In this document: positions 13,696 to 64,000 of the stretch, piece after piece | Layout: the number at the start of each line of letters is the position of its first letter | Numbering within the stretch: the stretch's first letter is position 1 | Assembly (NCBI RefSeq): GCF_023055435.1 | Contig: NW_025964334.1 | Location: forward strand, 10,602,001 to 10,666,000 | From: Haliotis rufescens | Lineage: Eukaryota | Direction: 5' to 3' | Length of the DNA: 64,000 nucleotides | Made by a program: the position numbers and the translations under genes | Notes under the pieces: model-generated | Told to the model about the DNA's origin: nothing | Seen by the model: only the letters and a program-made list of their open reading frames with translations | Database searches by the model: none

Positions 13696-13733
<38 letters not shown>

Positions 13734-13965: not shown

Positions 13966-14012
13966 TGCCTGCACCTTTTACTTTAAGACCGCCTGCCTGG
14001 GCCTGTGGATAG

Positions 14013-14141: not shown

Positions 14142-14146
14142 AGCAT

Positions 14147-18491: not shown

Positions 18492-18494
<3 letters not shown>
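18217..18494. repeat. Diverged truncated relic of the array unit (matches 19112-19408)
   Basis: Colinear with the unit from GGACGCAAG to GAACATAGTA. It has many substitutions and one short deletion. Confidence 0.88.

Positions 18495-18572
<78 letters not shown>
18493..18572. repeat. (TA)~40 microsatellite at the array boundary
   Basis: Read directly from the sequence. Confidence 0.95.
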
Positions 18573-18575
<3 letters not shown>

Positions 18576-18964
18576 CCCATGCTGTATAGCTTGTAATGGA
18601 TTGGCATCAACATAAGACATGGGCTTGTTTGCCAATCCAGTTGGATTTCAAGAAATAACTTTGTTTCAACTACTCTTAACTAAGCATTAACATCCAGCCT
18701 AATGAAGGCTTTAACTTTCCACAGTTTCTAATTATGGTTACATGCACGCTCACAAAAAATCTTATGTGTTGTATTGTCTCATTCGAACGGGTGAAATATC
18801 AAAGTTCATTGCAATTTACATGTGAGACATACATCACACCTAATTATATACAAATGAGCTAATGACATTAACATGCGTGTTCAAGTTCTTTTGATGAAGG
18901 AAGCTCTTTGCGCGCAGGTACAATTGGCACCAACATGTTCTTTATTTATAAGTTTAATATGCAG

Positions 18965-19155
18965 TATATCATGTAAATGTGGGAGGAAAGCCGATAATGG
19001 TGCACAACTTTGGTGAAACCGATGTGCAGGGTTTATTGCTGGCAAACTGAGAATCATAATCAGAGTGGATCTAGTTTCAAACCAACAACCATAGGATTCT
19101 TGGCCATCTAAAGGACGCAAGTGTGCATTAAGAAATGCGGCGCTCTAGGCCACAC
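18965..19155 (-). mobile_element. Decayed SINE family 2 copy carried in every array unit
   Basis: AATGTGGGAGGAAAGCC...GGTGAAACC...AAAGGACGCAAGTGTGCA...GCGGCGCTCTAG matches, in order, blocks of 868-1070. Confidence 0.65.
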
Positions 19156-19808
19156 CTGTCAACGTTGAAAATGAACGGAAACATATTTTGTATTGTTGAA
19201 CTATTTTATTTTCTGGCAAAATCGCAATTCAGATAAAATCGCAGTTCCAGGAATGCTCAGTGTAATCTATTATATGATAATACACGTTCTTGCAGGTATT
19301 GTATCTGTTTCATTGTTACAACATGAACGGTCACCTTGCGAGCAAGGTGAAAATGTTAAACTTAAACAGGTTCATATTTTCTGCCAATATTGTTTAATGA
19401 ACATAGTAATGCATAACTTGTGTCGCGATGTTTACACACAAGCACACTGACACTGACAAGTAACATTAGTACAATGACACTGTTAAGCACGTGTCGGTAT
19501 GCTTTGTTCCTTCACATAAACAACAACGTACAATGTGCAAGTCAAGCATCATGTCTGACAATGCTATCGTCTTCACACAGAGAGTGTCTTGATGACTTTA
19601 TCTTCGTCTTCGTCAACCCCAACCTTGTGACGCTCTAAACGTTATGGGACTGAGCGACAGTGACTGATGTCTTCTTCTTGGCGTCGTCTTCGTCGTCTTG
19701 GACAACAGGCTTGCTGCTGTTGGTTCATCCTCTTGTTGGGGAACTGTGAGTATAGTGTGGATATTGATCCTACTGTTTGGAACCTTCTTGTAAGTTCGGT
19801 TGATCTTT

Positions 19809-21301
19809 TCATCTGGTTACACCTGGCAGCTGGAAGAGAGTAAATTTGCAAAAATTAGAACCGCAGTAGAGAGTATTTAATCATGTAATATTCGAAGTTT
19901 TTTTTGCAGTCAAAATTTATCAATCACATTAAGAATCATTTGGGTCCTTGAAATGTTTCCCAACGAAATCAATTAATTTTAGAATGCGTGTGGCCCAAGT
20001 GAGATCATGGCCAAGAGAACCTGAAGGAGAGTATGTTACATACCTGACAGACGAGCTTCTGTGCTGGTCGTTTGTTTTGGTAGGTCCAGGCTAAATCCAG
20101 AAGGGCTGGACCATGTCCCTGATTTTGACATCTCTGGACAAACTGCATACAGGCCGTTTGTAGGTCGGAGAATCCAAATTCCACAGATGCACAGAGTAAT
20201 CCTGAAAGAGCCGAGGACGTATTGTAATGTGTTTGATAAAATATCATCAAAAGGGTGAAGTTCATATTATGGATAATTGTCTGTGTTTCGCTCATGTGTC
20301 ATCAAGATTAGTGGTATGGGGATATTTTTGTGTTGAAATGAATATCCCATTTAAACAAATAAAGATAGTACTTACCAACCACATTGTTAAAATCGATGTT
20401 AGCTTTCCCTGAGTGGACGAATTTGAGGAACGCCCGAAAGTCTCCAATCTGGTAGTCAGGAATGCTGATGGTGAGTTTCTGTGCAAAGGCTGAGTCTTTG
20501 ATCTTTTTGGTCTTTGATCGTTCCAAGGAGGAGTGTTTCTGATGTTGAAGCAAAAGCTGATATAGGTACCTAGAGAAAAGAAAGAAACAAATTAAAGACG
20601 ATAGTCATACACAACTAGTAAATGGTCCAAATATTGTTCTCATGTTGAGTACATTCACAGAGTATAAGAGCCAAACAGGCTCTACTTAAACATGCACTTA
20701 TTATTGTCCTGACCTTTGTAATGGATTTGATTGTTTTCGAGAATATCTTACCTGCTTCGTGTAGCCATTATGGCTTTGACTCCATGAACAGGAGCCTTCT
20801 CCTTCCCAACGAGAAAGGTGACGTCACACATATCTGGCATGTTGAGGATGAGGGAGAGGCTGTCCTGTAAGTCCCCTGTGCTTCTAAGCATCATGACGTC
20901 TCCCCGACCGGAGGACTGTGAGGGGTGAGAGCGGCCTTGTGATGGGTTGGAACTGGATTGGCTGAACGATCTTGATTTTGAGGTCGTGCTCACGCCTTCA
21001 TCAGAGGAGTAGTCACTTGAGTCATAGCCTGACGAGGTACCTTCAGCTGGAATAAGAAAAGAAATCAGTTATGAAACAATATTCAATTTGTTGCAAATGT
21101 TATTAAAGCTGAGTGGTGTTTGATGAACAGAACGGGTAGTTGAAATATACTTTGAATAAAAACAACACCAATGAATTATTATCCAGATGTGATAAAAGTG
21201 AATAGTGCAAATGTCTCACCGTCTGCGTCATGACCACTGTGGTCAATAGTTTCCATGGCCGAAGAGGCCAGAAGACAAAGTCGGGAATCGTAATGATTCA
21301 T
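19809..21301 (-). CDS. BTB/POZ-domain protein, serine-enriched-protein-like, ~249 aa; copy 1
   Basis: Exons 21301-21220, 21046-20752, 20569-20376, 20201-20044 and 19829-19809. All introns are GT-AG with pyrimidine tracts and phases 1,2,1,0. BTB motifs: MCDVTFLVG...VHGVKAIMATRSRYLYQL...ISIPDY...FLKFVHSG...VVGLLCASVEFGFSDLQTACMQFV. The last exon is the least certain. Confidence 0.88.
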
Positions 21302-21410
21302 GTTACTTGTTTTTAGATCTAAAAAATAATGAAAGACAGAAATGATATTTGGCTAAACTCGACGAATCTAAAGAGCTAAGTATGTATCTCGATGTAATGT
21401 TTCCAAGAGT

Positions 21411-21592
21411 GGAATGCCTTCTTCCTGTAACAGAACAGCTTTATACCTTTGCGTATCACAACACAAATGACAGGGTCATTACTACAACTACATGTCACGA
21501 TTAATTCAATGTTGACATGAAGGCTTCAGCTTAGCACATTTAGCTAGTGGCACGTGCTGCACTTGTGAATGAGATGACATCACGTGACCAAT
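21411..21592 (-). promoter_or_regulatory. Core and proximal promoter of the BTB gene (repeated in each unit)
   Basis: TATAAAG at 21445-21439. An initiator-like GCATTC has its A at 21415, 30 nt downstream. CACGTG at 21551-21556 and 21581-21586, TGACATCA at 21575-21582, CCAAT at 21588-21592. Confidence 0.7.
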
Positions 21593-23698
21593 CTAGTAAG
21601 TGTTCTACGGTAATGTCGTTTGTTGTCAAAACATCGACATAATATAATTAGGATGATAATGTGTTTCAGGTGTTTGATTATTTAAGGATTTACGATATCC
21701 GTGTTCATTTGCCGGTGTTAATTGGTATCTTGTTATAAAGCATCCATTTGTACACAAGTTAGATTTGATATGAGTGGAACTTTTAGATGCCCGTGATGTA
21801 GATGTAGTTACAGAATGTTGGTGGAATTATACACTATCTATCTGTATAAGTATGTGAAAATTACTTGCACTTGAAATATACATGTTTAGCGTTATAGTTT
21901 CCACTGACTGAAGACAGTCATTGTGATTTCCTTATTGATATATAATTGAACTAACATAGTTCTGTTATTGAATTGTGTATAAACATAACTGATAGTTTTT
22001 TGTTTCAATTTTCCCAAGTGCAAGGGTGACAACACAAAGTTAGAGTGTCAAATGTTGAAAGAGGGTGTTTTTTTTTCTGGTGTGTGTATATGACACCCCG
22101 CTGTTTCCTTACAATTTGTGTCAGCCAAAGTCAATTCACCGTGTCACTCTTCAGGCAAAGAGTTTGCTAAACTGAACTTTATTGTACTCGGGATTACTCG
22201 TGACACATGACCGCATGATTTGAAACTGAGCGGAGGCACAACGATTTGTTGAGTAGAGGGCTTGGCTATAGATGATATACTCAGCGATGTGTATTTGTTT
22301 AATCATAACGGAATGTGTGATTGTACGGTTGCTGATAGATGTTGTAGACAGGCTAGTCAAGTGGTACATGTTTGCGTTTGAATTGACTGGCAATCAAGGC
22401 AGTTTGAGAAACAAACTTGCAACATATAACTAGAACCTTTGCGCTCACTGCTTCTGCACTTATATCCCATGCTGTATAGCTTGTAATGGATTGGCATCAA
22501 CATAAGACATGGGCTTGTTTGCCAATCCAGTTGGATTTCAAGAAATAACTTTGTTTCAACTACTCTTAACTAAGCATTAACATCCAGCCTAATGAAGGCT
22601 TTAACTTTCCACAGTTTCTAATTATGGTTACATGCACGCTCACAAAAAATCTTATGTGTTGTATTGTCTCATTCGAACGGGTGAAATATCAAAGTTCATT
22701 GCAATTTACATGTGAGACATACATCACACCTAATTATATACAAATGAGCTAATGACATTAACATGCGTGTTCAAGTTCTTTTGATGAAGGAAGCTCTTTG
22801 CGCGCAGGTACAATTGGCACCAACATGTTCTTTATTTATAAGTTTAATATGCAGTATATCATGTAAATGTGGGAGGAAAGCCGATAATGGTGCACAACTT
22901 TGGTGAAACCGATGTGCAGGGTTTATTGCTGGCAAACTGAGAAACATAATCAGAGTGGATCTAGTTTCAAACCAACAACCATAGGATTCTTGGCCATCTA
23001 AAGGACGCAAGTGTGCATTAAGAAATGCGGCGCTCTAGGCCACACCTGTCAACGTTGAAAATGAACGGAAACATATTTTGTATTGTTGAACTATTTTATT
23101 TTCTGGCAAAATCGCAATTCAGATAAAATCGCAGTTCCAGGAATGCTCAGTGTAATCTATTATATGATAATACACGTTCTTGCAGGTATTGTATCTGATT
23201 CATTGTTACAACATGAACGGTCACCTTGCGAGCAAGGTGAAAATGTTAAACTTAAACAGGTTCATATTTTCTGCCAATATTGTTTAATGAACATAGTAAT
23301 GCATAACTTGTGTCGCGATGTTTACACACAAGCACACTGACACTGACAAGTAACATTAGTACAATGACACTGTTAAGTACGTGTCGGTATGCTTTGTTCC
23401 TTCACACAAACAACAACGTACAATGTGCAAGTCAAGCATCATGTCTGACAATGCTATCGTCTTCACACAGAGAGTATCTTGATGACTTTATCTTCGTCTT
23501 CGTCAACCCCAACCTTGTGACGCTCTAAACGTTATGGGACTGAGCGACAGTGACTGATGTCTTCTTCTTGGCGTCGTCTTCGTCGTCTTGGACAACAGGC
23601 TTGCTGCTGTTGGTTCATCCTCTTGTTGGGGAACTGTGAGTATAGTGTGGATATTGATCCTACTGTTTGGAACCTTCTTGTAAGTTCGGTTGATCTTT

Positions 23699-25192
23699 TC
23701 ATCTGGTTACACCTGACAGCTGGAAAAAGAGTAAATTTGCAAAAATTAGAACCGCAGTAGAGAGTATTTAATCATGTAATATTCGAAGTTTTTTTTGCAG
23801 TCAAAATTTATCAATCACATTAAGAATCATTTGGGTCCTTGAAATGTTTCCCAACGAAATCAATTAATTTTAGAATGCGTGTGGCCCAAGTGAGATCATG
23901 GCCAAGAGAACCTGAAGGAGAGTATGTTACATACCTGACAGACGAGCTTCTGTGCTGGTCGTTTGTTTTGGTAGGTCCAGGCTAAATCCAGAAGGGCTGG
24001 ACCATGTCCCTGATTTTGACATCTCTGGACAAACTGCATACAGGCCGTTTGTAGGTCGGAGAATCCAAATTCCACAGATGCACAGAGTAATCCTGAAAGA
24101 GCCGAGGACGTATTGTAATTTGTTTGATAAAATATCATCAAAAGGGTGAAGTTCATATTATGGATAATTGTCTGTGTTTCACTCATGTGTCATCAAGATT
24201 AGTGGTATGGGGATATTTTTGTGTTGAAATGAATATCCCATTTAAACAAATAAAGATAGTACTTACCAACCACATTGTTAAAATCGATGTTAGCTTTCCC
24301 TGAGTGGACGAATTTGAGGAACGCCCGAAAGTCTCCAATCTGGTAGTCAGGAATGCTGATGGTGAGTTTCTGTGCAAAGGCTGAGTCTTTGATCTTTTTG
24401 GTCTTTGATCGTTCCAAGGAGGAGTGTTTCTGATGTTGAAGCAAAAGCTGATATAGGTACCTAGAGAAAAGAAAGAAAGAAATTAAAGACGATAGTCATA
24501 CACAACTAGTAAATGGTCCAAATATTGTTCTCATGTTGAGTACATTCACAGAGTATAAGAGCCAAACAGGCTCTACTTAAACATGCACTTATTATTGTCC
24601 TGACCTTTGTAATGGATTTGATTGTTTTCGAGAATATCTTACCTGCTTCGTGTAGCCATTATGGCTTTGACTCCATGAACAGGAGCCTTCTCCTTCCCAA
24701 CGAGAAAGGTGACGTCACACATATCTGGCATGTTGAGGATGAGGGAGAGGCTGTCCTGTAAGTCCCCTGTGCTTCTAAGCATCATGACGTCTCCCCGACC
24801 GGAGGACTGTGAGGGGTGAGAGCGGCCTTGTGATGGGTTGGAACTGGATTGGCTGAACGATCTTGATTTTGAGGTCGTGCTCACGCCTTCATCAGAGGAG
24901 TAGTCGCTTGAGTCATAGCCTGACGAGGTACCTTCAGCTGGAATAAGAAAAGAAATCAGTTATGAAACAATATTCAATTTGTTGCAAATGTTATTAAAGC
25001 TGAGTGGTGTTTGATGAACAGAACGGGTAGTTGAAATATACTTTGAATAAAAACAACACCAATGAATTATTATCCTGATGTGATAAAAGTGAATAGTGCA
25101 AATGTCTCACCGTCTGCGTCATGACCACTGTGGTCAATAGTTTCCATGGCCGAAGAGGCCAGAAGACAAAGTCGGGAATCGTAATGATTCAT
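23699..25192 (-). CDS. BTB/POZ-domain protein, copy 2
   Basis: Same five exons and splice sites as copy 1; frame intact. Confidence 0.87.
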
Positions 25193-27589
25193 GTTACTTG
25201 TTTTTAGATGTAAAAAATAATGAAAGACAGAAATGATATTTGGCTAAACTCGACGAATCTAAAGAGCTAAGTATGTATCTCGATGTAATGTTTCCAAGAG
25301 TGGAATGCCTTCTTCCTGTAACAGAACAGCTTTATACCTTTGCGTATCACAACACAAATGACAGGGTCATTATTACAACTACATGTCACGATTAATTCAA
25401 TGTTGACATGAAGGCTTCAGCTTAGCACATTTAGCTAGTGGCACGTGCTGCACTTGTGAATGAGATGACATCACGTGACCAATCTAGTAAGTGTTCTACG
25501 GTAATGTCGTTTGTTGTCAAAACATCGACATAATATAATTAGGATGATAATGTGTTTCAGGTGTTTGATTATTTAAGGATTTACGATATCCGTGTTCATT
25601 TGCCGGTGTTAATTGGTATCTTGTTATAAAGCATCCATTTGTACACAAGTTAGATTTGATATGAGTGGAACTTTTAGATGCCCGTGATGTAGATGTAGTT
25701 ACAGAATGTTGGTGGAATTATACACTATCTATCTGTATAAGTATGTGAAAATTACTTGCACTTGAAATATACATGTTTAGCGTTATAGTTTCCACTGACT
25801 GAAGACAGTCATTGTGATTTCCTTATTGATATATAATTGAACTAACATAGTTCTGTTATTGAATTGTGTATAAACATAACTGATAGTTTTTTGTTTCAAT
25901 TTTCCCAAGTGCAAGGGTGACAACACAAAGTTAGAGTGTCAAATGTTGAAAGAGGGTGTTTTTTTTTCTGGTGTGTGTATATGACACCCCGCTGTTTCCT
26001 TACAATTTGTGTCAGCCAAAGTCAATTCACCGTGTCACTCTTCAGGCAAAGAGTTTGCTAAACTGAACTTTATTGTACTCGGGATTACTCGTGACACATG
26101 ACCGCATGATTTGAAACTGAGCGGAGGCACAACGATTTGTTGAGTAGAGGGCTTGGCTATAGATGATATACTCAGCGATGTGTATTTGTTTAATCATAAC
26201 GGAATGTGTGATTGTACGGTTGCTGATAGATGTTGTAGACAGGCTAGTCAAGTGGTACATGTTTGCGTTTGAATTGACTGGCAATCAAGGCAGTTTGAGA
26301 AACAAACTTGCAACATATAACTAGAACCTTTGCGCTCACTGCTTCTGCACTTATATCCCATGCTGTATAGCTTGTAATGGATTGGCATCAACATAAGACA
26401 TGGGCTTGTTTGCCAATCCAGTTGGATTTCAAGAAATAACTTTGTTTCAACTACTCTTAACTAAGCATTAACATCAAGCCTAATGAAGGCTTTAACTTTC
26501 CACAGTTTCTAATTATGGTTACATGCACGCTCACAAAAAATCTTATGTGTTGTATTGTCTCATTCGAACGGGTGAAATATCAAAGTTCATTGCAATTTAC
26601 ATGTGAGACATACATCACACCTAATTATATACAAATGAGCTAATGACATTAACATGCGTGTTCAAGTTCTTTTGATGAAGGAAGCTCTTTGCGCGCAGGT
26701 ACAATTGGCACCAACATGTTCTTTATTTATAAGTTTAATATGCAGTATATCATGTAAATGTGGGAGGAAAGCCGATAATGGTGCACAACTTTGGTGAAAC
26801 CGATGTGCAGGGTTTATTGCTGGCAAACTGAGAAACATAATCAGAGTGGATCTAGTTTCAAACCAACAACCATAGGATTCTTGGCCATCTAAAGGACGCA
26901 AGTGTGCATTAAGAAATGCGGCGCTCTAGGCCACACCTGTCAACGTTGAAAATGAACGGAAACATATTTTGTATTGTTGAACTATTTTATTTTCTGGCAA
27001 AATCGCAATTCAGATAAAATCGCAGTTCCAGGAATGCTCAGTGTAATCTATTATATGATAATACACGTTCTTGCAGGTATTGTATCTGATTCATTGTTAC
27101 AACATGAACGGTCACCTTGCGAGCAAGGTGAAAATGTTAAACTTAAACAGGTTCATATTTTCTGCCAATATTGTTTAATGAACATAGTAATGCATAACTT
27201 GTGTCGCGATGTTTACACACAAGCACACTGACACTGACAAGTAACATTAGTACAATGACACTGTTAAGTACGTGTCGGTATGCTTTGTTCCTTCACACAA
27301 ACAACAACGTACAATGTGCAAGTCAAGCATCATGTCTGACAATGCTATCGTCTTCACACAGAGAGTAGCTTGATGACTTTATCTTCGTCTTCGTCAACCC
27401 CAACCTTGTGACGCTCTAAACGTTATGGGACTGAGCGACAGTGACTGATGTCTTCTTCTTGGCGTCGTCTTCGTCGTCTTGGACAACAGGCTTGCTGCTG
27501 TTGGTTCATCCTCTTGTTGGGGAACTGTGAGTATAGTGTGGATATTGATCCTACTGTTTGGAACCTTCTTGTAAGTTCGGTTGATCTTT

Positions 27590-29083
27590 TCATCTGGTTA
27601 CACCTGACAGCTGGAAAAAGAGTAAATTTGCAAAAATTAGAACCGCAGTAGAGAGTATTTAATCATGTAATATTCGAAGTTTTTTTTGCAGTCAAAATTT
27701 ATCAATCACATTAAGAATCATTTGGGTCCTTGAAATGTTTCCCAACGAAATCAATTAATTTTAGAATGCGTGTGGCCCAAGTGAGATCATGGCCAAGAGA
27801 ACCTGAAGGAGAGTATGTTACATACCTGACAGACGAGCTTCTGTGCTGGTCGTTTGTTTTGGTAGGTCCAGGCTAAATCCAGAAGGGCTGGACCATGTCC
27901 CTGATTTTGACATCTCTGGACAAACTGCATACAGGCCGTTTGTAGGTCGGAGAATCCAAATTCCACAGATGCACAGAGTAATCCTGAAAGAGCCGAGGAC
28001 GTATTGTAATTTGTTTGATAAAATATCATCAAAAGGGTGAAGTTCATATTATGGATAATTGTCTGTGTTTCACTCATGTGTCATCAAGATTAGTGGTATG
28101 GGGATATTTTTGTGTTGAAATGAATATCCCATTTAAACAAATAAAGATAGTACTTACCAACCACATTGTTAAAATCGATGTTAGCTTTCCCTGAGTGGAC
28201 GAATTTGAGGAACGCCCGAAAGTCTCCAATCTGGTAGTCAGGAATGCTGATGGTGAGTTTCTGTGCAAAGGCTGAGTCTTTGATCTTTTTGGTCTTTGAT
28301 CGTTCCAAGGAGGAGTGTTTCTGATGTTGAAGCAAAAGCTGATATAGGTACCTAGAGAAAAGAAAGAAAGAAATTAAAGACGATAGTCATACACAACTAG
28401 TAAATGGTCCAAATATTGTTCTCATGTTGAGTACATTCACAGAGTATAAGAGCCAAACAGGCTCTACTTAAACATGCACTTATTATTGTCCTGACCTTTG
28501 TAATGGATTTGATTGTTTTCGAGAATATCTTACCTGCTTCGTGTAGCCATTATGGCTTTGACTCCATGAACAGGAGCCTTCTCCTTCCCAACGAGAAAGG
28601 TGACGTCACACATATCTGGCATGTTGAGGATGAGGGAGAGGCTGTCCTGTAAGTCCCCTGTGCTTCTAAGCATCATGACGTCTCCCCGACCGGAGGACTG
28701 TGAGGGGTGAGAGCGGCCTTGTGATGGGTTGGAACTGGATTGGCTGAACGATCTTGATTTTGAGGTCGTGCTCACGCCTTCATCAGAGGAGTAGTCACTT
28801 GAGTCATAGCCTGACGAGGTACCTTCAGCTGGAATAAGAAAAGAAATCAGTTATGAAACAATATTCAATTTGTTGCAAATGTTATTAAAGCTGAGTGGTG
28901 TTTGATGAACAGAACGGGTAGTTGAAATATACTTTGAATAAAAACAACACCAATGAATTATTATCCAGATGTGATAAAAGTGAATAGTGCAAATGTCTCA
29001 CCGTCTGCGTCATGACCACTGTGGTCAATAGTTTCCATGGCCGAAGAGGCCAGAAGACAAAGTCGGGAATCGTAATGATTCAT
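27590..29083 (-). CDS. BTB/POZ-domain protein, copy 3
   Basis: Same structure; frame intact. Confidence 0.87.
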
Positions 29084-31480
29084 GTTACTTGTTTTTAGAT
29101 CTAAAAAATAATGAAAGACAGAAATGATATTTGGCTAAACTCGACGAATCTAAAGAGCTAAGTATGTATCTCGATGTAATGTTTCCAAGAGTGGAATGCC
29201 TTCTTCCTGTAACAGAACAGCTTTATACCTTTGCGTATCACAACACAAATGACAGGGTCATTACTACAACTACATGTCACGATTAATTCAATGTTGACAT
29301 GAAGGCTTCAGCTTAGCACATTTAGCTAGTGGCACGTGCTGCACTTGTGAATGAGATGACATCACGTGACCAATCTAGTAAGTGTTCTACGGTAATGTCG
29401 TTTGTTGTCAAAACATCGACATAATATAATTAGGATGATAATGTGTTTCAGGTGTTTGATTATTTAAGGATTTACGATATCCGTGTTCATTTGCCGGTGT
29501 TAATTGGTATCTTGTTATAAAGCATCCATTTGTACACAAGTTAGATTTGATATGAGTGGAACTTTTAGATGCCCGTGATGTAGATGTAGTTACAGAATGT
29601 TGGTGGAATTATACACTATCTATCTGTATAAGTATGTGAAAATTACTTGCACTTGAAATATACATGTTTAGCGTTATAGTTTCCACTGACTGAAGACAGT
29701 CATTGTGATTTCCTTATTGATATATAATTGAACTAACATAGTTCTGTTATTGAATTGTGTATAAACATAACTGATAGTTTTTTGTTTCAATTTTCCCAAG
29801 TGCAAGGGTGACAACACAAAGTTAGAGTGTCAAATGTTGAAAGAGGGTGTTTTTTTTTCTGGTGTGTGTATATGACACCCCGCTGTTTCCTTACAATTTG
29901 TGTCAGCCAAAGTCAATTCACCGTGTCACTCTTCAGGCAAAGAGTTTGCTAAACTGAACTTTATTGTACTCGGGATTACTCGTGACACATGACCGCATGA
30001 TTTGAAACTGAGCGGAGGCACAACGATTTGTTGAGTAGAGGGCTTGGCTATAGATGATATACTCAGCGATGTGTATTTGTTTAATCATAACGGAATGTGT
30101 GATTGTACGGTTGCTGATAGATGTTGTAGACAGGCTAGTCAAGTGGTACATGTTTGCGTTTGAATTGACTGGCAATCAAGGCAGTTTGAGAAACAAACTT
30201 GCAACATATAACTAGAACCTTTGCGCTCACTGCTTCTGCACTTATATCCCATGCTGTATAGCTTGTAATGGATTGGCATCAACATAAGACATGGGCTTGT
30301 TTGCCAATCCAGTTGGATTTCAAGAAATAACTTTGTTTCAACTACTCTTAACTAAGCATTAACATCCAGCCTAATGAAGGCTTTAACTTTCCACAGTTTC
30401 TAATTATGGTTACATGCACGCTCACAAAAAATCTTATGTGTTGTATTGTCTCATTCGAACGGGTGAAATATCAAAGTTCATTGCAATTTACATGTGAGAC
30501 ATACATCACACCTAATTATATACAAATGAGCTAATGACATTAACATGCGTGTTCAAGTTCTTTTGATGAAGGAAGCTCTTTGCGCGCAGGTACAATTGGC
30601 ACCAACATGTTCTTTATTTATAAGTTTAATATGCAGTATATCATGTAAATGTGGGAGGAAAGCCGATAATGGTGCACAACTTTGGTGAAACCGATGTGCA
30701 GGGTTTATTGCTGGCAAACTGAGAAACATAATCAGAGTGGATCTAGTTTCAAACCAACAACCATAGGATTCTTGGCCATCTAAAGGACGCAAGTGTGCAT
30801 TAAGAAATGCGGCGCTCTAGGCCACACCTGTCAACGTTGAAAATGAACGGAAACATATTTTGTATTGTTGAACTATTTTATTTTCTGGCAAAATCGCAAT
30901 TCAGATAAAATCGCAGTTCCAGGAATGCTCAGTGTAATCTATTATATGATAATACACGTTCTTGCAGGTATTGTATCTGATTCATTGTTACAACATGAAC
31001 GGTCACCATGCGAGCAAGGTGAAAATGTTAAACTTAAACAGGTTCATATTTTCTGCCAATATTGTTTAATGAACATAGTAATGCATAACTTGTGTCGCGA
31101 TGTTTACACACAAGCACACTGACACTGACAAGTAACATTAGTACAATGACACTGTTAAGCACGTGTCGGTATGCTTTGTTCCTTCACACAAACAACAACG
31201 TACAATGTGCAAGTCAAGCATCATGTCTGACAATGCTATCGTCTTCACACAGAGAGTATCTTGATGACTTTATCTTCGTCTTCGTCAACCCCAACCTTGT
31301 GACGCTCTAAACGTTATGGGACTGAGCGACAGTGACTGATGTCTTCTTCTTGGCGTCGTCTTCGTCGTCTTGGACAACAGGCTTGCTGCTGTTGGTTCAT
31401 CCTCTTGTTGGGGAACTGTGAGTATAGTGTGGATATTGATCCTACTGTTTGGAACCTTCTTGTAAGTTCGGTTGATCTTT

Positions 31481-32974
31481 TCATCTGGTTACACCTGACA
31501 GCTGGAAAAAGAGTAAATTTGCAAAAATTAGAACCGCAGTAGAGAGTATTTAATCATGTAATATTCGAAGTTTTTTTTGCAGTCAAAATTTATCAATCAC
31601 ATTAAGAATCATTTGGGTCCTTGAAATGTTTCCCAACGAAATCAATTAATTTTAGAATGCGTGTGGCCCAAGTGAGATCATGGCCAAGAGAACCTGAAGG
31701 AGAGTATGTTACATACCTGACAGACGAGCTTCTGTGCTGGTCGTTTGTTTTGGTAGGTCCAGGCTAAATCCAGAAGGGCTGGACCATGTCCCTGATTTTG
31801 ACATCTCTGGACAAACTGCATACAGACCGTTTGTAGGTCGGAGAATCCAAATTCCACAGATGCACAGAGTAATCCTGAAAGAGCCGAGGACGTATTGTAA
31901 TTTGTTTGATAAAATATCATCAAAAGGGTGAAGTTCATATTATGGATAATTGTCTGTGTTTCACTCATGTGTCATCAAGATTAGTGGTATGGGGATATTT
32001 TTGTTTTGAAATGAATATCCCATTTAAACAAATAAAGATAGTACTTACCAACCACATTGTTAAAATCGATGTTAGCTTTCCCTGAGTGGACGAATTTGAG
32101 GAACGCCCGAAAGTCTCCAATCTGGTAGTCAGGAATGCTGATGGTGAGTTTCTGTGCAAAGGCTGAGTCTTTGATCTTTTTGGTCTTTGATCGTTCCAAG
32201 GAGGAGTGTTTCTGATGTTGAAGCAAAAGCTGATATAGGTACCTAGAGAAAAGAAAGAAACAAATTAAAGACGATAGTCATACACAACTAGTAAATGGTC
32301 CAAATATTGTTCTCATGTTGAGTACATTCACAGAGTATAAGAGCCAAACAGGCTCTACTTAAACATGCACTTATTATTGTCCTGACCTTTGTAATGGATT
32401 TGATTGTTTTCGAGAATATCTTACCTGCTTCGTGTAGCCATTATGGCTTTGACTCCATGAACAGGAGCCTTCTCCTTCCCAACGAGAAAGGTGACGTCAC
32501 ACATATCTGGCATGTTGAGGATGAGGGAGAGGCTGTCCTGTAAGTCCCCTGTGCTTCTAAGCATCATGACGTCTCCCCGACCGGAGGACTGTGAGGGGTG
32601 AGAGCGGCCTTGTGATGGGTTGGAACTGGATTGGCTGAACGATCTTGATTTTGAGGTCGTGCTCACGCCTTCATCAGAGGAGTAGTCGCTTGAGTCATAG
32701 CCTGACGAGGTACCTTCAGCTGGAATAAGAAAAGAAATCAGTTATGAAACAATATTCAATTTGTTGCAAATGTTATTAAAGCTGAGTGGTGTTTGATGAA
32801 CAGAACGGGTAGTTGAAATATACTTTGAATAAAAACAACACCAATGAATTATTATCCAGATGTGATAAAAGTGAATAGTGCAAATGTCTCACCGTCTGCG
32901 TCATGACCACTGTGGTCAATAGTTTCCATGGCCGAAGAGGCCAGAAGACAAAGTCGGGAATCGTAATGATTCAT
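31481..32974 (-). CDS. BTB/POZ-domain protein, copy 4 (A>V in LQTAC)
   Basis: Same structure; one missense change in exon 4. Confidence 0.87.
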
Positions 32975-35371
32975 GTTACTTGTTTTTAGATCTAAAAAAT
33001 AATGAAAGACAGAAATGATATTTGGCTAAACTCGACGAATCTAAAGAGCTAAGTATGTATCTCGATGTAATGTTTCCAAGAGTGGAATGCCTTCTTCCTG
33101 TAACAGAACAGCTTTATACCTTTGCGTATCACAACACAAATGACAGGGTCATTACTACAACTACATGTCACGATTAATTCAATGTTGACATGAAGGCTTC
33201 AGCTTAGCACATTTAGCTAGTGGCACGTGCTGCACTTGTGAATGAGATGACATCACGTGACCAATCTAGTAAGTGTTCTACGGTAATGTCGTTTGTTGTC
33301 AAAACATCGACATAATATAATTAGGATGATAATGTGTTTCAGGTGTTTGATTATTTAAGGATTTACGATATCCGTGTTCATTTGCCGGTGTTAATTGGTA
33401 TCTTGTTATAAAGCATCCATTTGTACACAAGTTAGATTTGATATGAGTGGAACTTTTAGATGCCCGTGATGTAGATGTAGTTACAGAATGTTGGTGGAAT
33501 TATACACTATCTATCTGTATAAGTATGTGAAAATTACTTGCACTTGAAATATACATGTTTAGCGTTATAGTTTCCACTGACTGAAGACAGTCATTGTGAT
33601 TTCCTTATTGATATATAATTGAACTAACATAGTTCTGTTATTGAATTGTGTATAAACATAACTGATAGTTTTTTGTTTCAATTTTCCCAAGTGCAAGTGT
33701 GACAACACAAAGTTAGAGTGTCAAATGTTGAAAGAGAGTGTGTTTTTTTCTGGTGTGTGTATATGACACCCTGCTGTTTCCTTACAATTTGTGTCAGCCA
33801 AAGTCAATTCACCGTGTCACTCTTCAGGCAAAGAGTTTGCTAAACTGAACTTTATTGTACTCGGGATTACTCGTGACACATGACCGCATGATTTGAAACT
33901 GAGCGGAGGCGCAACGATTTGTTGAGTAGAGGGCTTGGCTATAGATGATATACTCAGCGATGTGTATTTGTTTAATCATAACGGAATGTGTGATTGTACG
34001 GTTGCTGATAGATGTTGTAGACAGGCTAGTCAAGTGGTACATGTTTGCTTTTGAATTGACTGGCAATCAAGGCAGTTTGAGAAACAAACTTGCAACATAT
34101 AACTAGAACCTTTGCGCTCACTGCATCTGCACTTATATCCCATGCTGTATAGCTTGTAATGGATTGGCATCAACATAAGACATGGGCTTGTTTGCCAATC
34201 CAGTTGGATTTCAAGAAATAACTTTGTTTCAACTACTCTTAACTAAGCATTAACATCCAGCCTAATGAAGGCTTTAGCTTTCCACAGTTTCTAATTATGG
34301 TTACATGCACGCTCACAAAAAATCTTATGTGTTGTATTGTCTCATTCGAACGGGTGAAATATCAAAGTTCATTGCAATTTACATGTGAGACATACATCAC
34401 ACCTAATTATATACAAATGAGCTAATGACATTAACATGCGTGTTCAAGTTCTTTTGATGAAGGAAGCTCTTTGCGCGCAGGTACAATTGGCACCAACATG
34501 TTCTTTATTTATAAGTTTAATATGCAGTATATCATGTAAATGTGGGAGGAAAGCCGATAATGGTGCACAACTTTGGTGAAACCGATGTGCAGGGTTTATT
34601 GCTGGCAAACTGAGAATCATAATCAGAGTGGATCTAGTTTCAAACCAACAACCATAGGATTCTTGGCCGTCTAAAGGACGCAAGTGTGCATTAAGAAATG
34701 CGGCGCTCTAGGCCACACCTGTCAACGTTGAAAATGAACGGAAACATATTTTGTATTGTTGAACTATTTTATTTTCTGGCAAAATCGCAATTCAGATAAA
34801 ATCGCAGTTCCAGGAATGCTCAGTGTAATCTATTATATGATAATACACGTTCTTGCAGGTATTGTATCTGTTTCATTGTTACAACATGAACGGTCACCTT
34901 GCGAGCAAGGTGAAAATGTTAAACTTAAACAGGTTCATATTTTCTGCCAATATTGTTTAATGAACATAGTAATGCATAACTTGTGTCGCGATGTTTACAC
35001 ACAAGCACACTGACACTGACAAGTAACATTAGTACAATGACACTGTTAAGCACGTGTCGGTATGCTTTGTTCCTTCACATAAACAACAACGTACAATGTG
35101 CAAGTCAAGCATCATGTCTGACAATGCTATCGTCTTCACACAGAGAGTGTCTTGATGACTTGATCTTCGTCTTCGTCAACCCCAACCTTGTGACGCTCTA
35201 AACGTTATGGGACTGAGCGACAGTGACTGATGTCTTCTTCTTGGCGTCGTCTTCGTCGTCTTGGACAACAGGCTTGCTGCTGTTGGTTCATCCTCTTGTT
35301 GGGGAACTGTGAGTATAGTGTGGATATTGATCCTACTGTTTGGAACCTTCTTGTAAGTTCGGTTGATCTTT

Positions 35372-36864
35372 TCATCTGGTTACACCTGACGGCTGGAAGA
35401 GAGTAAATTTGCAAAAATTAGAACCGCAGTAGAGAGTATTTAATCATGTAATATTCGAAGTTTTTTTTGCAGTCAAAATTTATCAATCACATTAAGAATC
35501 ATTTGGGTCCTTGAAATGTTTCCCAACGAAATCAATTAATTTTAGAATGCGTGTGGCCCAAGTGAGATCATGGCCAAGAGAACCTGAAGGAGAGTATGTT
35601 ACATACCTGACAGACGAGCTTCTGTGCTGGTCGTTTGTTTTGGTAGGTCCAGGCTAAATCCAGAAGGGCTGGACCATGTCCCTGATTTTGACATCTCTGG
35701 ACAAACTGCATACAGGCCGTTTGTAGGTCGGAGAATCCAAATTCCACAGATGCACAGAGTAATCCTGAAAGAGCCGAGGACGTATTGTAATGTGTTTGAT
35801 AAAATATCATCAAAAGGGTGAAGTTCATATTATGGATAATTGTCTGTGTTTCGCTCATGTGTCATCAAGATTAGTGGTATGGGGATATTTTTGTGTTGAA
35901 ATGAATATCCCATTTAAACAAATAAAGATAGTACTTACCAACCACATTGTTAAAATCGATGTTAGCTTTCCCTGAGTGGACGAATTTGAGGAACGCCCGA
36001 AAGTCTCCAATCTGGTAGTCAGGAATGCTGATGGTGAGTTTCTGTGCAAAGGCTGAGTCTTTGATCTTTTTGGTCTTTGATCGTTCCAAGGAGGAGTGTT
36101 TCTGATGTTGAAGCAAAAGCTGATATAGGTACCTAGAGAAAAGAAAGAAACAAATTAAAGACGATAGTCATACACAACTAGTAAATGGTCCAAATATTGT
36201 TCTCATGTTGAGTACATTCACAGAGTATAAGAGCCAAACAGGCTCTACTTAAACATGCACTTATTATTGTCCTGACCTTTGTAATGGATTTGATTGTTTT
36301 CGAGAATATCTTACCTGCTTCGTGTAGCCATTATGGCTTTGACTCCATGAACAGGAGCCTTCTCCTTCCCAACGAGAAAGGTGACGTCACACATATCTGG
36401 CATGTTGAGGATGAGGGAGAGGCTGTCCTGTAAGTCCCCTGTGCTTCTAAGCATCATGACGTCTCCCCGACCGGAGGACTGTGAGGGGTGAGAGCGGCCT
36501 TGTGATGGGTTGGAACTGGATTGGCTGAACGATCTTGATTTTGAGGTCGTGCTCACGCCTTCATCAGAGGAGTAGTCGCTTGAGTCATAGCCTGACGAGG
36601 TACCTTCAGCTGGAATAAGAAAAGAAATCAGTTATGAAACAATATTCAATTTGTTGCAAATGTTATTAAAGCTGAGTGGTGTTTGATGAACAGAACGGGT
36701 AGTTGAAATATACTTTGAATAAAAACAACACCAATGAATTATTATCCTGATGTGATAAAAGTGAATAGTGCAAATGTCTCACCGTCTGCGTCATGACCAC
36801 TGTGGTCAATAGTTTCCATGGCCGAAGAGGCCAGAAGACAAAGTCGGGAATCGTAATGATTCAT
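35372..36864 (-). CDS. BTB/POZ-domain protein, copy 5
   Basis: Same structure; frame intact. Confidence 0.87.
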
Positions 36865-39260
36865 GTTACTTGTTTTTAGATCTAAAAAATAATGAAAGAC
36901 AGAAATGATATTTGGCTAAACTCGACGAATCTAAAGAGCTAAGTATGTATCTCGATGTAATGTTTCCAAGAGTGGAATGCCTTCTTCCTGTAACAGAACA
37001 GCTTTATACCTTTGCGTATCACAACACAAATGACAGGGTCATTATTACAACTACATGTCACGATTAATTCAATGTTGACATGAAGGCTTCAGCTTAGCAC
37101 ATTTAGCTAGTGGCACGTGCTGCACTTGTGAATGAGATGACATCACGTGACCAATCTAGTAAGTGTTCTACGGTAATGTCGTTTGTTGTCAAAACATCGA
37201 CATAATATAATTAGGATGATAATGTGTTTCAGGTGTTTGATTATTTAAGGATTTACGATATCCGTGTTCATTTGCCGGTGTTAATTGGTATCTTGTTATA
37301 AAGCATCCATTTGTACACAAGTTAGATTTGATATGAGTGGAACTTTTAGATGCCCGTGATGTAGATGTAGTTACAGAATGTTGGTGGAATTATACACTAT
37401 CTATCTGTATAAGTATGTGAAAATTACTTGCACTTGAAATATACATGTTTAGCGTTATAGTTTCCACTGACTGAAGACAGTCATTGTGATTTCCTTATTG
37501 ATATATAATTGAACTAACATAGTTCTGTTATTGAATTGTGTATAAACATAACTGATAGTTTTTTGTTTCAATTTTCCCAAGTGCAAGGGTGACAACACAA
37601 AGTTAGAGTGTCAAATGTTGAAAGAGGGTGTTTTTTTTCTGGTGTGTGTATATGACACCCCGCTGTTTCCTTACAATTTGTGTCAGCCAAAGTCAATTCA
37701 CCGTGTCACTCTTCAGGCAAAGAGTTTGCTAAACTGAACTTTATTGTACTCGGGATTACTCGTGACACATGACCGCATGATTTGAAACTGAGCGGAGGCG
37801 CAACGATTTGTTGAGTAGAGGGCTTGGCTATAGATGATATACTCAGCGATGTGTATTTGTTTAATCATAACGGAATGTGTGATTGTACGGTTGCTGATAG
37901 ATGTTGTAGACAGGCTAGTCAAGTGGTACATGTTTGCGTTTGAATTGACTGGCAATCAAGGCAGTTTGAGAAACAAACTTGCAACATATAACTAGAACCT
38001 TTGCGCTCACTGCTTCTGCACTTATATCCCATGCTGTATAGCTTGTAATGGATTGGCATCAACATAAGACATGGGCTTGTTTGCCAATCCAGTTGGATTT
38101 CAAGAAATAACTTTGTTTCAACTACTCTTAACTAAGCATTAACATCCAGCCTAATGAAGGCTTTAACTTTCCACAGTTTCTAATTATGGTTACATGCACG
38201 CTCACAAAAAATCTTATGTGTTGTATTGTCTCATTCGAACGGGTGAAATATCAAAGTTCATTGCAATTTACATGTGAGACATACATCACACCTAATTATA
38301 TACAAATGAGCTAATGACATTAACATGCGTGTTCAAGTTCTTTTGATGAAGGAAGCTCTTTGCGCGCAGGTACAATTGGCACCAACATGTTCTTTATTTA
38401 TAAGTTTAATATGCAGTATATCATGTCAATGTGGGAGGAAAGCCGATAATGGTGCACAACTTTGGTGAAACCGATGTGCAGGGTTTATTGCTGGCAAACT
38501 GAGAAACATAATCAGAGTGGATCTAGTTTCAAACCAACAACCATAGGATTCTTGGCCATCTAAAGGACGCAAGTGTGCATTAAGAAATGCGGCGCTCTAG
38601 GCCACACCTGTCAACGTTGAAAATGAACGGAAACATATTTTGTATTGTTGAACTATTTTATTTTCTGGCAAAATCGCAATTCAGATAAAATCGCAGTTCC
38701 AGGAATGCTCAGTGTAATCTATTATATGATAATACACGTTCTTGCAGGTATTGTATCTGATTCATTGTTACAACATGAACGGTCACCTTGCGAGCAAGGT
38801 GAAAATGTTAAACTTAAACAGGTTCATATTTTCTGCCAATATTGTTTAATGAACATAGTAATGCATAACTTGTGTCGCGATGTTTACACACAAGCACACT
38901 GACACTGACAAGTAACATTAGTACAATGACACTGTTAAGTACGTGTCGGTATGCTTTGTTCCTTCACACAAACAACAACGTACAATGTGCAAGTCAAGCA
39001 TCATGTCTGACAATGCTATCGTCTTCACACAGAGAGTAGCTTGATGACTTTATCTTCGTCTTCGTCAACCCCAACCTTGTGACGCTCTAAACGTTATGGT
39101 ACTGAGCGACAGTGACTGATGTCTTCTTCTTGGCGTCGTCTTCGTCGTCTTGGACAACAGGCTTGCTGCTGTTGGTTCATCCTCTTGTTGGGGAACTGTG
39201 AGTATAGTGTGGATATTGATCCTACTGTTTGGAACCTTCTTGTAAGTTCGGTTGATCTTT

Positions 39261-40754
39261 TCATCTGGTTACACCTGACAGCTGGAAAAAGAGTAAATTT
39301 GCAAAAATTAGAACCGCAGTAGAGAGTATTTAATCATGTAATATTCGAAGTTTTTTTTGCAGTCAAAATTTATCAATCACATTAAGAATCATTTGGGTCC
39401 TTGAAATGTTTCCCAACGAAATCAATTAATTTTAGAATGCGTGTGGCCCAAGTGAGATCATGGCCAAGAGAACCTGAAGGAGAGTATGTTACATACCTGA
39501 CAGACGAGCTTCTGTGCTGGTCGTTTGTTTTGGTAGGTCCAGGCTAAATCCAGAAGGGCTGGACCATGTCCCTGATTTTGACATCTCTGGACAAACTGCA
39601 TACAGGCCGTTTGTAGGTCGGAGAATCCAAATTCCACAGATGCACAGAGTAATCCTGAAAGAGCCGAGGACGTATTGTAATTTGTTTGATAAAATATCAT
39701 CAAAAGGGTGAAGTTCATATTATGGATAATTGTCTGTGTTTCACTCATGTGTCATCAAGATTAGTGGTATGGGGATATTTTTGTGTTGAAATGAATATCC
39801 CATTTAAACAAATAAAGATAGTACTTACCAACCACATTGTTAAAATCGATGTTAGCTTTCCCTGAGTGGACGAATTTGAGGAACGCCCGAAAGTCTCCAA
39901 TCTGGTAGTCAGGAATGCTGATGGTGAGTTTCTGTGCAAAGGCTGAGTCTTTGATCTTTTTGGTCTTTGATCGTTCCAAGGAGGAGTGTTTCTGATGTTG
40001 AAGCAAAAGCTGATATAGGTACCTAGAGAAAAGAAAGAAACAAATTAAAGACGATAGTCATACACAACTAGTAAATGGTCCAAATATTGTTCTCATGTTG
40101 AGTACATTCACAGAGTATAAGAGCCAAACAGGCTCTACTTAAACATGCACTTATTATTGTCCTGACCTTTGTAATGGATTTGATTGTTTTCGAGAATATC
40201 TTACCTGCTTCGTGTAGCCATTATGGCTTTGACTCCATGAACAGGAGCCTTCTCCTTCCCAACGAGAAAGGTGACGTCACACATATCTGGCATGTTGAGG
40301 ATGAGGGAGAGGCTGTCCTGTAAGTCCCCTGTGCTTCTAAGCATCATGACGTCTCCCCGACCGGAGGACTGTGAGGGGTGAGAGCGGCCTTGTGATGGGT
40401 TGGAACTGGATTGGCTGAACGATCTTGATTTTGAGGTCGTGCTCACGCCTTCATCAGAGGAGTAGTCGCTTGAGTCATAGCCTGACGAGGTACCTTCAGC
40501 TGGAATAAGAAAAGAAATCAGTTATGAAACAATATTCAATTTGTTGCAAATGTTATTAAAGCTGAGTGGTGTTTGATGAACAGAACGGGTAGTTGAAATA
40601 TACTTTGAATAAAAACAACACCAATGAATTATTATCCTGATGTGATAAAAGTGAATAGTGCAAATGTCTCACCGTCTGCGTCATGACCACTGTGGTCAAT
40701 AGTTTCCATGGCCGAAGAGGCCAGAAGACAAAGTCGGGAATCGTAATGATTCAT
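39261..40754 (-). CDS. BTB/POZ-domain protein, copy 6
   Basis: Same structure; frame intact. Confidence 0.87.
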
Positions 40755-43151
40755 GTTACTTGTTTTTAGATCTAAAAAATAATGAAAGACAGAAATGATA
40801 TTTGGCTAAACTCGACGAATCTAAAGAGCTAAGTATGTATCTCGATGTAATGTTTCCAAGAGTGGAATGCCTTCTTCCTGTAACAGAACAGCTTTATACC
40901 TTTGCGTATCACAACACAAATGACAGGGTCATTATTACAACTACATGTCACGATTAATTCAATGTTGACATGAAGGCTTCAGCTTAGCACATTTAGCTAG
41001 TGGCACGTGCTGCACTTGTGAATGAGATGACATCACGTGACCAATCTAGTAAGTGTTCTACGGTAATGTCGTTTGTTGTCAAAACATCGACATAATATAA
41101 TTAGGATGATAATGTGTTTCAGGTGTTTGATTATTCAAGGATTTACGATATCCGTGTTCATTTGCCGGTGTTAATTGGTATCTTGTTATAAAGCATCCAT
41201 TTGTACACAAGTTAGATTTGATATGAGTGGAACTTTTAGATGCCCGTGATGTAGATGTAGTTACAGAATGTTGGTGGAATTATACACTATCTATCTGTAT
41301 AAATATGTGAAACTTACTTGCACTTGAAATATACATGTTTAGCGTTATAGTTTCCACTGACTGAAGACAGTCATTGTGATTTCCTTATTGATATATAATT
41401 GAACTAAAATAGTTCTGTTATTGAATTGTGTATAAACATAACTGATAGTTTTTTGTTTCAGTTTTCCCAATTGCAAGTGTGACAACACAAAGTTAGAGTG
41501 TCAAATGTTGAAAGAGAGTGTGTTTTTTTCTGGTGTGTGTATATGACACCCTGCTGTTTCCTTACAATTTGTGTCAGCCAAAGTCAATTCACCGTGTCAC
41601 TCTTCAGGCAAAGAGTTTGCTAAACTGAACTTTATTGTACTCGGGATTACTCGTGACACATGACCGCATGATTTGAAACTGAGCGGAGGCGCAACGATTT
41701 GTTGAGTAGAGGGCTTGGCTATAGATGATATACTCAGCGATGTGTATTTGTTTAATCATAACGGAATGTGTGATTGTACGGTTGCTGATAGATGTTGTAG
41801 ACAGGCTAGTCAAGTGGTACATGTTTGCGTTTGAATTGACTGGCAATCAAGGCAGTTTGAGAAACAAACTTGCAACATATAACTAGAACCTTTGCGCTCA
41901 CTGCTTCTGCACTTATATCCCATGCTGTATAGCTTGTAATGGATTGGCATCAACATAAGACATGGGCTTGTTTGCCAATCCAGTTGGATTTCAAGAAATA
42001 ACTTTGTTTCAACTACTCTTAACTAAGCATTAACATCCAGCCTAATGAAGGCTTTAACTTTCCACAGTTTCTAATTATGGTTACATGCACGCTCACAAAA
42101 AATCTTATGTGTTGTATTGTCTCATTCGAACGGGTGAAATATCAAAGTTCATTGCAATTTACATGTGAGACATACATCACACCTAATTATATACAAATGA
42201 GCTAATGACATTAACATGCGTGTTCAAGTTCTTTTGATGAAGGAAGCTCTTTGCGCGCAGGTACAATTGGCACCAACATGTTCTTTATTTATAAGTTTAA
42301 TATGCAGTATATCATGTAAATGTGGGAGGAAAGCCGATAATGGTGCACAACTTTGGTGAAACCGATGTGCAGGGTTTATTGCTGGCAAACTGAGAAACAT
42401 AATCAGAGTGGATCTAGTTTCAAACCAACAACCATAGGATTCTTGGCCATCTAAAGGACGCAAGTGTGCATTAAGAAATGCGGCGCTCTAGGCCACACCT
42501 GTCAACGTTGAAAATGAACGGAAACATATTTTGTATTGTTGAACTATTTTATTTTCTGGCAAAATCGCAATTCAGATAAAATCGCAGTTCCAGGAATGCT
42601 CAGTGTAATCTATTATATGATAATACACGTTCTTGCAGGTATTGTATCTGATTCATTGTTACAACATGAACGGTCACCTTGCGAGCAAGGTGAAAATGTT
42701 AAACTTAAACAGGTTCATATTTTCTGCCAATATTGTTTAATGAACATAGTAATGCATAACTTGTGTCGCGATGTTTACACACAAGCACACTGACACTGAC
42801 AAGTAACATTAGTACAATGACACTGTTAAGTACGTGTCGGTATGCTTTGTTCCTTCACACAAACAACAACGTACAATGTGCAAGTCAAGCATCATGTCTG
42901 ACAATGCTATCGTCTTCACACAGAGAGTAGCTTGATGACTTTATCTTCGTCTTCGTCAACCCCAACCTTGTGACGCTCTAAACGTTATGGGACTGAGCGA
43001 CAGTGACTGATGTCTTCTTCTTGGCGTCGTCTTCGTCGTCTTGGACAACAGGCTTGCTGCTGTTGGTTCATCCTCTTGTTGGGGAACTGTGAGTATAGTG
43101 TGGATATTGATCCTACTGTTTGGAACCTTCTTGTAAGTTCGGTTGATCTTT

Positions 43152-63841: not shown

Positions 63842-64000
63842 CTGGAATAAGAAAAGAAATCAGTTATGAAACAATATTCAATTTGTTGCAAATGTTATTA
63901 AAGCTGAGTGGTGTTTGATGAACAGAACGGGTAGTTGAAATATACTTTGAATAAAAACAACACCAATGAATTATTATCCTGATGTGATAAAAGTGAATAG

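Follow-up and report, generated by a model that had tools for sequence, protein, structure and literature searches.

The gene described here (19809..21301, minus strand) is copy 1 of a head-to-tail tandem array in the window, by which we mean the whole 64,000-nucleotide stretch of Haliotis rufescens DNA that was analysed (Table 1). The window holds 11 complete copies and a partial twelfth, which is cut by its boundary; the array continues beyond the right end, giving a total of at least 12 copies. Complete units differ from one another at 6 to 38 positions and are 99.0-99.8% alike. Every unit comprises a whole gene together with its flanks, and all 11 complete copies are intact, each carrying a five-exon gene for 249 residues with one stop. 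An identical protein is encoded by 7 of these 11, and each of the other 4 has one substitution. The consensus C-terminus given in a preliminary description of this DNA, LSGVTR, holds for the majority of the array but not for copy 1, which ends in LPGVTR (S245P). Variable sites within the array fall at 7 of 750 coding and 58 of 3140 other positions, a rarity in coding sequence that is not significant (p 0.08). Because the copies are so alike and 4 of the 7 coding differences change a residue, the array itself gives no clear sign of purifying selection.

Table 1. Coordinates, in the window, of the array and of the parts of its first gene copy
Feature	Position	Strand	Remarks
Head-to-tail tandem array	18571..64000	.	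Unit 3889-3891 bp; self-BLAST 99.3-99.6% at shifts of ~3890
5' UTR and likely promoter, per unit	21302..21587	-	X1 contig start 21383; TATA-like box 21445; palindromic E-box 21587-21580
Exon 1, coding part	21220..21301	-	Start codon and conserved dileucine-like N-terminal stretch; RNA-like cover from 21383, loose end joins exon 2
Exon 2	20752..21046	-	Degron-like motif, Ser-rich disordered linker, BTB beta1/alpha1 up to the HGVKAIMATRS helix
SSGYDS, residues 32-37, beta-TrCP phosphodegron-like	21018..21035	-	Ser41 four residues on
Exon 3	20376..20569	-	Extended alpha3, Lys-rich insertion replacing the phi-x-E loop, beta4-alpha4-beta5
Exon 4	20044..20201	-	BTB alpha5-alpha6 and two 3-box-like helices
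Exon 5, coding part	19809..19829	-	Six residues and TGA stop; X1 joint 19829/20044, depth 242
3' UTR	19205..19808	-	X1 cover to ~19230; likely polyadenylation signal AATAAA 19210-19205

At the left edge of the array (18214-18572) lies a (TA)40 run, preceded by a copy of about 280 bp, 86% identical, of unit sequence 19109-19408, which is the end of the 3' UTR; this copy may be left over from an earlier time, or it may be a dispersed repeat from which the amplification started. A tblastn search of positions 1-18570 returned a single match (E 0.45) and thus no diverged gene copy or BACK remnant. The same region contains a 34-bp minisatellite of about 75 copies with strong G skew (6806-9339), a Tc1/mariner-type transposase frame of 379 codons between stops (14294-15433, plus strand; DDE_3 at E 4.6e-9 and helix-turn-helix matches), and, at 10699-13963 beside N gaps, three blocks, each some 0.9 kb long, that contain ACT-rich repeats and are nearly identical (99% and 91% alike), possibly through an assembly duplication. 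Three frames resembling retrotransposon remnants (5255-5701, 10343-10696 and 15842-16243) had no Pfam match at E 0.01.

Copy 1 comprises five exons separated by four GT-AG introns, and its 750 coding nucleotides specify 249 residues that form a disordered tail, a long-form BTB domain and two 3-box-like helices before a single stop. We compared it with four of 24 listed sequencing runs (X1, X3, X4 and X5) in the form of Logan contigs, for which the RNA label was guessed; spliced joints back that label for X1 and X4. Run X1, about 95% alike, has joints at 20566/20749, 20200/20375 and 19829/20044 with CT..AC ends, corresponding to introns 2, 3 and 4; exon 1 letters make up a loose end at 21047, which supports intron 1. 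The contigs of X1 reach a depth of 170-460 in most bins with exon or UTR sequence, versus 0-4 in the wholly intronic bins 19876-20005 and 21046-21175, and their cover spans 21383 to about 19230 and so runs beyond the stop. Introns 2 and 3 are also joined in X4, a run whose organism code is shared with the best DNA runs. X3 has intron cover, looks like DNA or pre-mRNA and shows one odd joint, and X5 contributed two pieces with no joint. Support for the last intron thus comes from a single relative (X1), backed by the H. asinina model P0008, which ends in homologous residues. The X1 transcript carries an in-frame 21-base deletion in the Ser-rich linker (20932-20952), and 6 of the 10 best-supported exon differences shown for it are silent and 4 change a residue.

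One way in which a BTB-only reading of this gene could fail is onward splicing to further domain-coding exons. In the RNA-like contigs, exon 4 was joined only to 19829 or to a 4-base-shifted form of equal length, no joint led to another coding exon, and X1 ran on into the 3' UTR. The RefSeq models tell a different story at this end. The last 50 codons of exon 2 are 100% identical to a RefSeq H. rufescens serine-enriched protein-like model, and the H. rufescens models match the gene through exon 4, but they begin at the second Met and have a different last exon. Across P0001, P0009-P0020 and P0026 there are several C-termini, some of them spliced into the next tandem copy, in conflict with the RNA-like joint; the tail of P0026 maps to exon 2 in another frame, although tail mapping was informative for only P0026 and P0008 out of 7 proteins. 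The alternative last exons (acceptor 19744, or a splice into the next copy) are readable in window frames and have no RNA-like joint. The differing C-termini at the array look like prediction errors, so that our analysis points to wrong C-termini in the RefSeq models. Models spliced into the next copy nonetheless indicate tandem copies in H. cracherodii as well. RefSeq also contains runs of consecutive accessions, some of which may be isoforms. One record of H. rufescens has at least 8 of them and one of H. cracherodii at least 15; a second H. rufescens paralogue accounts for 4, and a third paralogue for 9 in H. asinina. This suggests further abalone arrays of different paralogues in three species.

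Upstream of the 5'-most RNA-like cover (21383), each unit has a TATA-like box and an E-box, both simple pattern matches made without a chance control, to which a promoter function may be ascribed on sequence grounds. The palindromic CACGTG E-box is presumably CLEAR/USF-like, and together with the dileucine-like stretch at the N-terminus it could hint at a link to the lysosome.

The preliminary description had likened the protein to the gprs/serine-enriched subfamily and had called it BTB-only, with no substrate domain. The gprs affinity is confirmed, and the second point stands as far as domain content goes. Pfam found BTB (PF00651) alone on the matching RefSeq models, at E 1.2e-12 and 4.3e-14. 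A BACK profile, which picked up 51 of 52 long relatives held out as a check, had no match in any of the window's six frames (best E 11), and the protein has no folded substrate domain of the Kelch, MATH or PHR type. The 110 best long hits, proteins of 498-2000 residues from arthropods and echinoderms, are of the gprs type, with E down to 4e-45, and most are labelled BTB plus BACK; none of them bears a Kelch or MATH Pfam label, and Kelch proteins first appear at E 5.7e-11 or worse. A single-sequence search of solved structures and the ESM Atlas gave weak BTB matches and generic BTB clusters, respectively, and nothing more specific. As an account of function, the BTB-only label is incomplete, in that a strongly conserved linear motif lies near the N-terminus.

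Searching 1.84 billion representatives with a profile yielded 72 matches at E 1e-30 or better. Among the 150 matches listed, 65 cover both BTB and 3-box, of which 42 are short and 23 long. The named short forms come from Lottia, Littorina, Haliotis, Solemya, Mytilus, Saccostrea, Pecten, Mizuhopecten, Mya, Sinanodonta, Pinctada and Mercenaria, so that the short form occurs in limpet, periwinkle, abalone and at least 8 bivalve genera; the chiton Liolophura has BTB-BACK paralogues. We placed these sequences in a quick IQ-TREE tree of 77 rows, 4 of 81 having been dropped through failure of an anchor pattern and the careful search being unfinished. In this quick tree a gprs-type group of 71 rows is split from the BTB-Kelch/PHR outgroup at SH-aLRT 98, and the abalone protein falls in a 36-row clade of short gastropod and bivalve proteins (SH-aLRT 99). 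That clade is nested in a 51-row group (SH-aLRT 99) together with the BACK-bearing chiton forms and a second, 7-row short clade, and classical GPRS lies outside. A single origin of all short forms has a support of only 49 in the quick tree, and judging from these sequences the short form is either older than the gastropod/bivalve split or of multiple origins. Because BACK is absent from all 36 clade rows as well as from the window, the sequences place the abalone protein as a short derivative of the GPRS family rather than a canonical GPRS. Since the 110 best long relatives lack Kelch and MATH, the part lost relative to GPRS is the rest of BACK and the low-complexity tail. The partial literature library that we searched gave no publication on the short serine-enriched BTB family or its motif and nothing on tandem duplication of BTB genes in Haliotis; those gprs papers that were listed, judged from the listing, were not about its function.

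An AlphaFold2 model of residues 76-243, built from 77 sequences (pLDDT 92.3, pTM 0.86), predicts a long-form BTB whose alpha3 runs on to residue 143 and is followed by a loop (144-157), with two C-terminal helices at 221-229 and 235-242. Its best Foldseek match is the BTB/3-box of SPOP (3htm, E 3.3e-7). In VIA-align the whole model superposes on SPOP 177-320 with Z 13.7 (rmsd 4.2, 142 aligned) and on KEAP1 51-202 with Z 12.7 (rmsd 4.2, 145 aligned), and Z scores of 13-14 to BTB structures, together with the Pfam match above cut-off, support a BTB core fold. The two C-terminal helices of the model align with the 3-box of SPOP and KEAP1, in keeping with the earlier placing of the stop at the 3-box position, and 3-box positions are conserved among 48 short relatives (Tyr231 in 88%, Leu240 in 75%). 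A homodimer, one of the checks proposed earlier, is also predicted, with a score of 0.66 versus 0.01 for the best of 3 controls, contacts agreeing between runs to at least 83% and pLDDT of at least 84. Its interface involves beta1/alpha1/beta5, with residues 76-88 contacting 179-186; a swapped homodimer formed by the N-terminal beta1/alpha1 extension is seen in the prediction only. The mark for a homodimer was reached by 21 of 30 solved homodimers versus 0 of 23 single chains, and by group by 17 of 29 from eukaryotes and 7 of 16 from animals versus 0 of 30 single chains; the pass may come from the predictor's memory of solved BTB dimers.

The 3-box raises the question of whether the protein binds Cul3. 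According to PMC13061254, a CRL3 receptor is usually recognised by phi-x-E together with a 3-box, but KCTD proteins bind Cul3 without them. For KLHL3 it is reported that the phi residue buries most surface against Cul3, that E85A severely disrupts binding, and that the surface at the phi-x-E site is acidic in Cul3 binders (PMC3616122). In the abalone protein the alpha3-beta4 region lacks phi-x-E, by a pattern for which no positive control worked (5 of the 6 rows of the outgroup were unparsed); by the same pattern it is absent from all 19 parsed GPRS rows and matched loosely, as if by chance, in 6 of 32 clade rows. The region is modelled as an extended helix and a basic loop, in which a Lys-rich insertion, the basic insert already recognised in the preliminary description, takes the place of phi-x-E; residues 136-157 of the H. 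cracherodii orthologue P0010 contain 7 K/R versus 2 D/E. Cul3 binding by the abalone protein thus appears doubtful, because the 3-box is kept but phi-x-E is absent and the region is basic.

The feature that sets the short clade apart lies in the disordered tail and had escaped the preliminary description. SSGYDS belongs to a pattern, [ST]SGY[DESG]S, that 21 of the 24 clade members with complete N-termini carry, versus 0.01 expected from shuffled tails, and that none of 21 BACK-bearing relatives has; these counts are possibly flattered, as the pattern was defined after inspecting the sequences and the search profile itself contained the motif and may favour motif-bearing rows. The motif begins between residues 21 and 33 in 21 of 22 cases, within surrounding tails that cannot be aligned. 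A looser pattern is found in 20 of 31 short representatives (one of them a 476-residue row that is probably a cut GPRS) versus 1 of 17 long ones, and, by tree group, in 21 of 24 versus 0/1, 0/7, 0/15 and 0/6 in the others. The second short clade of 7 rows is mostly without a long tail, and the one row in which the motif could be sought lacks it. Ser33, Ser37 and Ser41 are spaced four apart, and acidic residues follow Ser41. A four-residue Ser spacing is that of a GSK3 relay, and CK1 and CK2 are acid-directed. A serine or threonine at +4 of the motif is present in 8 of 10 Haliotis proteins versus 5 of 19 non-Haliotis rows, and a lysine upstream of it in 0 of 10 Haliotis proteins versus 13 of 19 other rows; P0010 has one lysine in residues 1-75.

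Degrons of beta-TrCP include SSG and TSG starts, and BIM and DEPTOR appear as SSGYFS in Table 1 of PMC10317156. SSGYDS conforms to the definition quoted from that source, DSG/SSG/TSG-x-x-(x)-S in a disordered region, and by likeness only it fits the SSG class of beta-TrCP phosphodegrons. Two further linear motifs recur in the clade. An LL-type stretch lies within the first 22 residues in 19 of 24 members (3.2 expected) and in 4 of 21 BACK-bearing rows. A C-terminal [ST]-x-[VIL], which we take to be a class I PDZ-type motif, ends 14 of 42 short representatives versus 1 of 23 long ones (3.3% by chance). Relatives with such an ending (e.g. ETxV) include P0160, P0165, P0169, P0171, P0174, P0176, P0178, P0206, P0212 and P0039; it is found in 11 of 36 clade rows and is absent from the abalone array protein.

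We favour, with a probability of roughly 45%, the following reading: the gene, intact, spliced and amplified in tandem, belongs to an old mollusc clade that encodes short BTB proteins derived from GPRS; its product is predicted to homodimerise; and SSGYDS is likely a phosphodegron that would let SCF-beta-TrCP set the level of the protein, probably with no canonical Cul3 binding involved. Phosphate would be added to Ser41, Ser37 and Ser33 by GSK3 and an acid-directed kinase (CK1 or CK2), the dimer would offer its two tails to beta-TrCP, and ubiquitin could be accepted by Lys51 or the Lys-rich insert. The protein would then be a short-lived, signal-switched dimeric scaffold that acts not through a folded substrate domain but through linear motifs, namely the degron, the N-terminal LL motif and, in many relatives though not in the abalone protein, a PDZ-type C-terminus. 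The array would raise the dose, because each unit holds the whole gene with its flanks. Several observations weigh against this. The phosphodegron was assigned by likeness and through a pattern written post hoc; the want of upstream lysines in all 10 Haliotis proteins would equally fit a binder that is not degraded; the +4 serine or threonine is confined to 5 of 19 rows outside Haliotis; and the second short clade mostly has no long tail and lacks the motif in the one row where it could be sought. The Cul3 part is weakened by a phi-x-E search without a working positive control and by the KCTD proteins, which according to PMC13061254 bind Cul3 without phi-x-E. Nor are coding variable sites significantly rarer within the array.

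A binder that is not degraded would behave as a sink for beta-TrCP. Here the phosphorylated dimer would bind with its two tails, be poorly ubiquitinated and compete with IkappaB, beta-catenin and other clients, with copy number setting the strength of the brake. The same conservation of the motif in 21 of 24 clade members would be expected, and the lysine-poor tail of the Haliotis proteins, the single lysine in residues 1-75 of P0010, the separate accession runs for different paralogues in three abalone species and the high contig depth of X1 all suit it; yet 13 of 19 non-Haliotis rows have upstream lysines, acceptor lysines are available in the Lys-rich insert, and contig depth is a poor measure of expression and is low in the other three runs. 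Going by these sequences, we regard a sink as possible but rather unlikely. We speculate, at a similar strength, that molluscs made a dimeric beta-TrCP rheostat out of a GPRS BTB-BACK gene, which lost BACK and the Cul3 motif and gained a phosphodegron and linear motifs, and that repeated amplification in abalone tunes IkappaB/NF-kappaB and beta-catenin through copy number. Copy number might instead carry no functional weight, if an orphan BTB protein has been caught up in a recent neutral tandem amplification and its motif is a phosphosite for some other reader. It is common for a BTB protein to have no other domain (52% in C. elegans and 17% in human, by the figures that PMC1257465 gives), and the copies, 99.0-99.8% alike and with 4 of 7 coding differences changing a residue, show no clear purifying selection; the near-fixed position of the motif across gastropods and bivalves, the recurrence of tandem copies in several species and paralogues and the intactness of all 11 complete copies speak against it, and we think it unlikely.

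The remaining alternatives both need Cul3. The preliminary description had proposed an adaptor that lost its substrate module and became a dosage-dependent decoy, or dominant-negative Cul3 adaptor, whose BTB and 3-box occupy Cul3 without a substrate. Retention of the BTB and of both 3-box helices, which superpose on SPOP and KEAP1, speaks for it, as does the conservation of Tyr231 and Leu240, and according to PMC1257465 some BTB-only proteins bind Cul3. The parent family, however, lacks Kelch and MATH in the first place, the short form is old, phi-x-E has given way to a basic, helix-extended region at a site where mutation of the Glu in KLHL3 severely disrupted Cul3 binding (PMC3616122), and the conserved N-terminal motifs would be left unexplained, so that the decoy reading is weak and in our judgement improbable. 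A true Cul3 adaptor resembling NSP1 would combine the degron-like motif and the 3-box of the one chain, the mimic recruiting beta-TrCP and the BTB/3-box delivering it to Cul3, much as rotavirus NSP1, in the account that PMC5574712 gives, brings beta-TrCP to Cul3 through a CK2-phosphorylated IkappaB-like degron. The analogy is functional only, and such an adaptor would require a Cul3 binding that the missing phi-x-E makes doubtful; of the readings considered here we hold it to be the most improbable.

Architecture alone is not surprising, given that BTB-only proteins are common and that the gene already stands in RefSeq under an automatic name. What is new is a mollusc clade in which loss of BACK accompanies gain of a near-invariant beta-TrCP-type degron-like motif, amplified in tandem more than once in abalone. 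With the GPRS/serine-enriched family (Drosophila gprs and its arthropod, echinoderm and chiton kin) the abalone protein shares the BTB signature, the basic alpha3-beta4 insertion and the 3-box, and neither has phi-x-E, Kelch or MATH; GPRS proteins continue into BACK and a long low-complexity tail, whereas the abalone protein stops after the 3-box and carries the N-terminal SSGY[DE]S that none of the 21 BACK-bearing relatives has. The short mollusc proteins called "serine-enriched protein-like" in RefSeq have the same architecture, mostly in 220-300 residues, with BTB as the sole Pfam family above cut-off, and belong to the same clade; they differ in that 11 of the 36 clade rows have the class I PDZ-type end. 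Compared with the Cul3 adaptors SPOP, KLHL3, KLHL11 and KEAP1, the fold is the same over the whole modelled part and the long-form dimer interface is predicted as well, but identity is 14-24% and the abalone protein has neither phi-x-E, replaced by the basic insertion, nor full BACK, Kelch or MATH. The beta-TrCP substrates BIM and DEPTOR likewise have an SSGY-x-S core in a disordered Ser/acidic tail, going by the entries in PMC10317156. We claim no homology with BIM, DEPTOR or NSP1; the abalone candidate, recognised from sequence alone, sits on a host BTB dimer. Rotavirus NSP1, which as outlined in PMC5574712 couples a degron mimic to Cul3, is alike in function only. Were the abalone protein a sink, it would be a host counterpart of the viral beta-TrCP antagonists, and its array would make copy number a means of acting on immune and stress signalling in abalone that are farmed or endangered.
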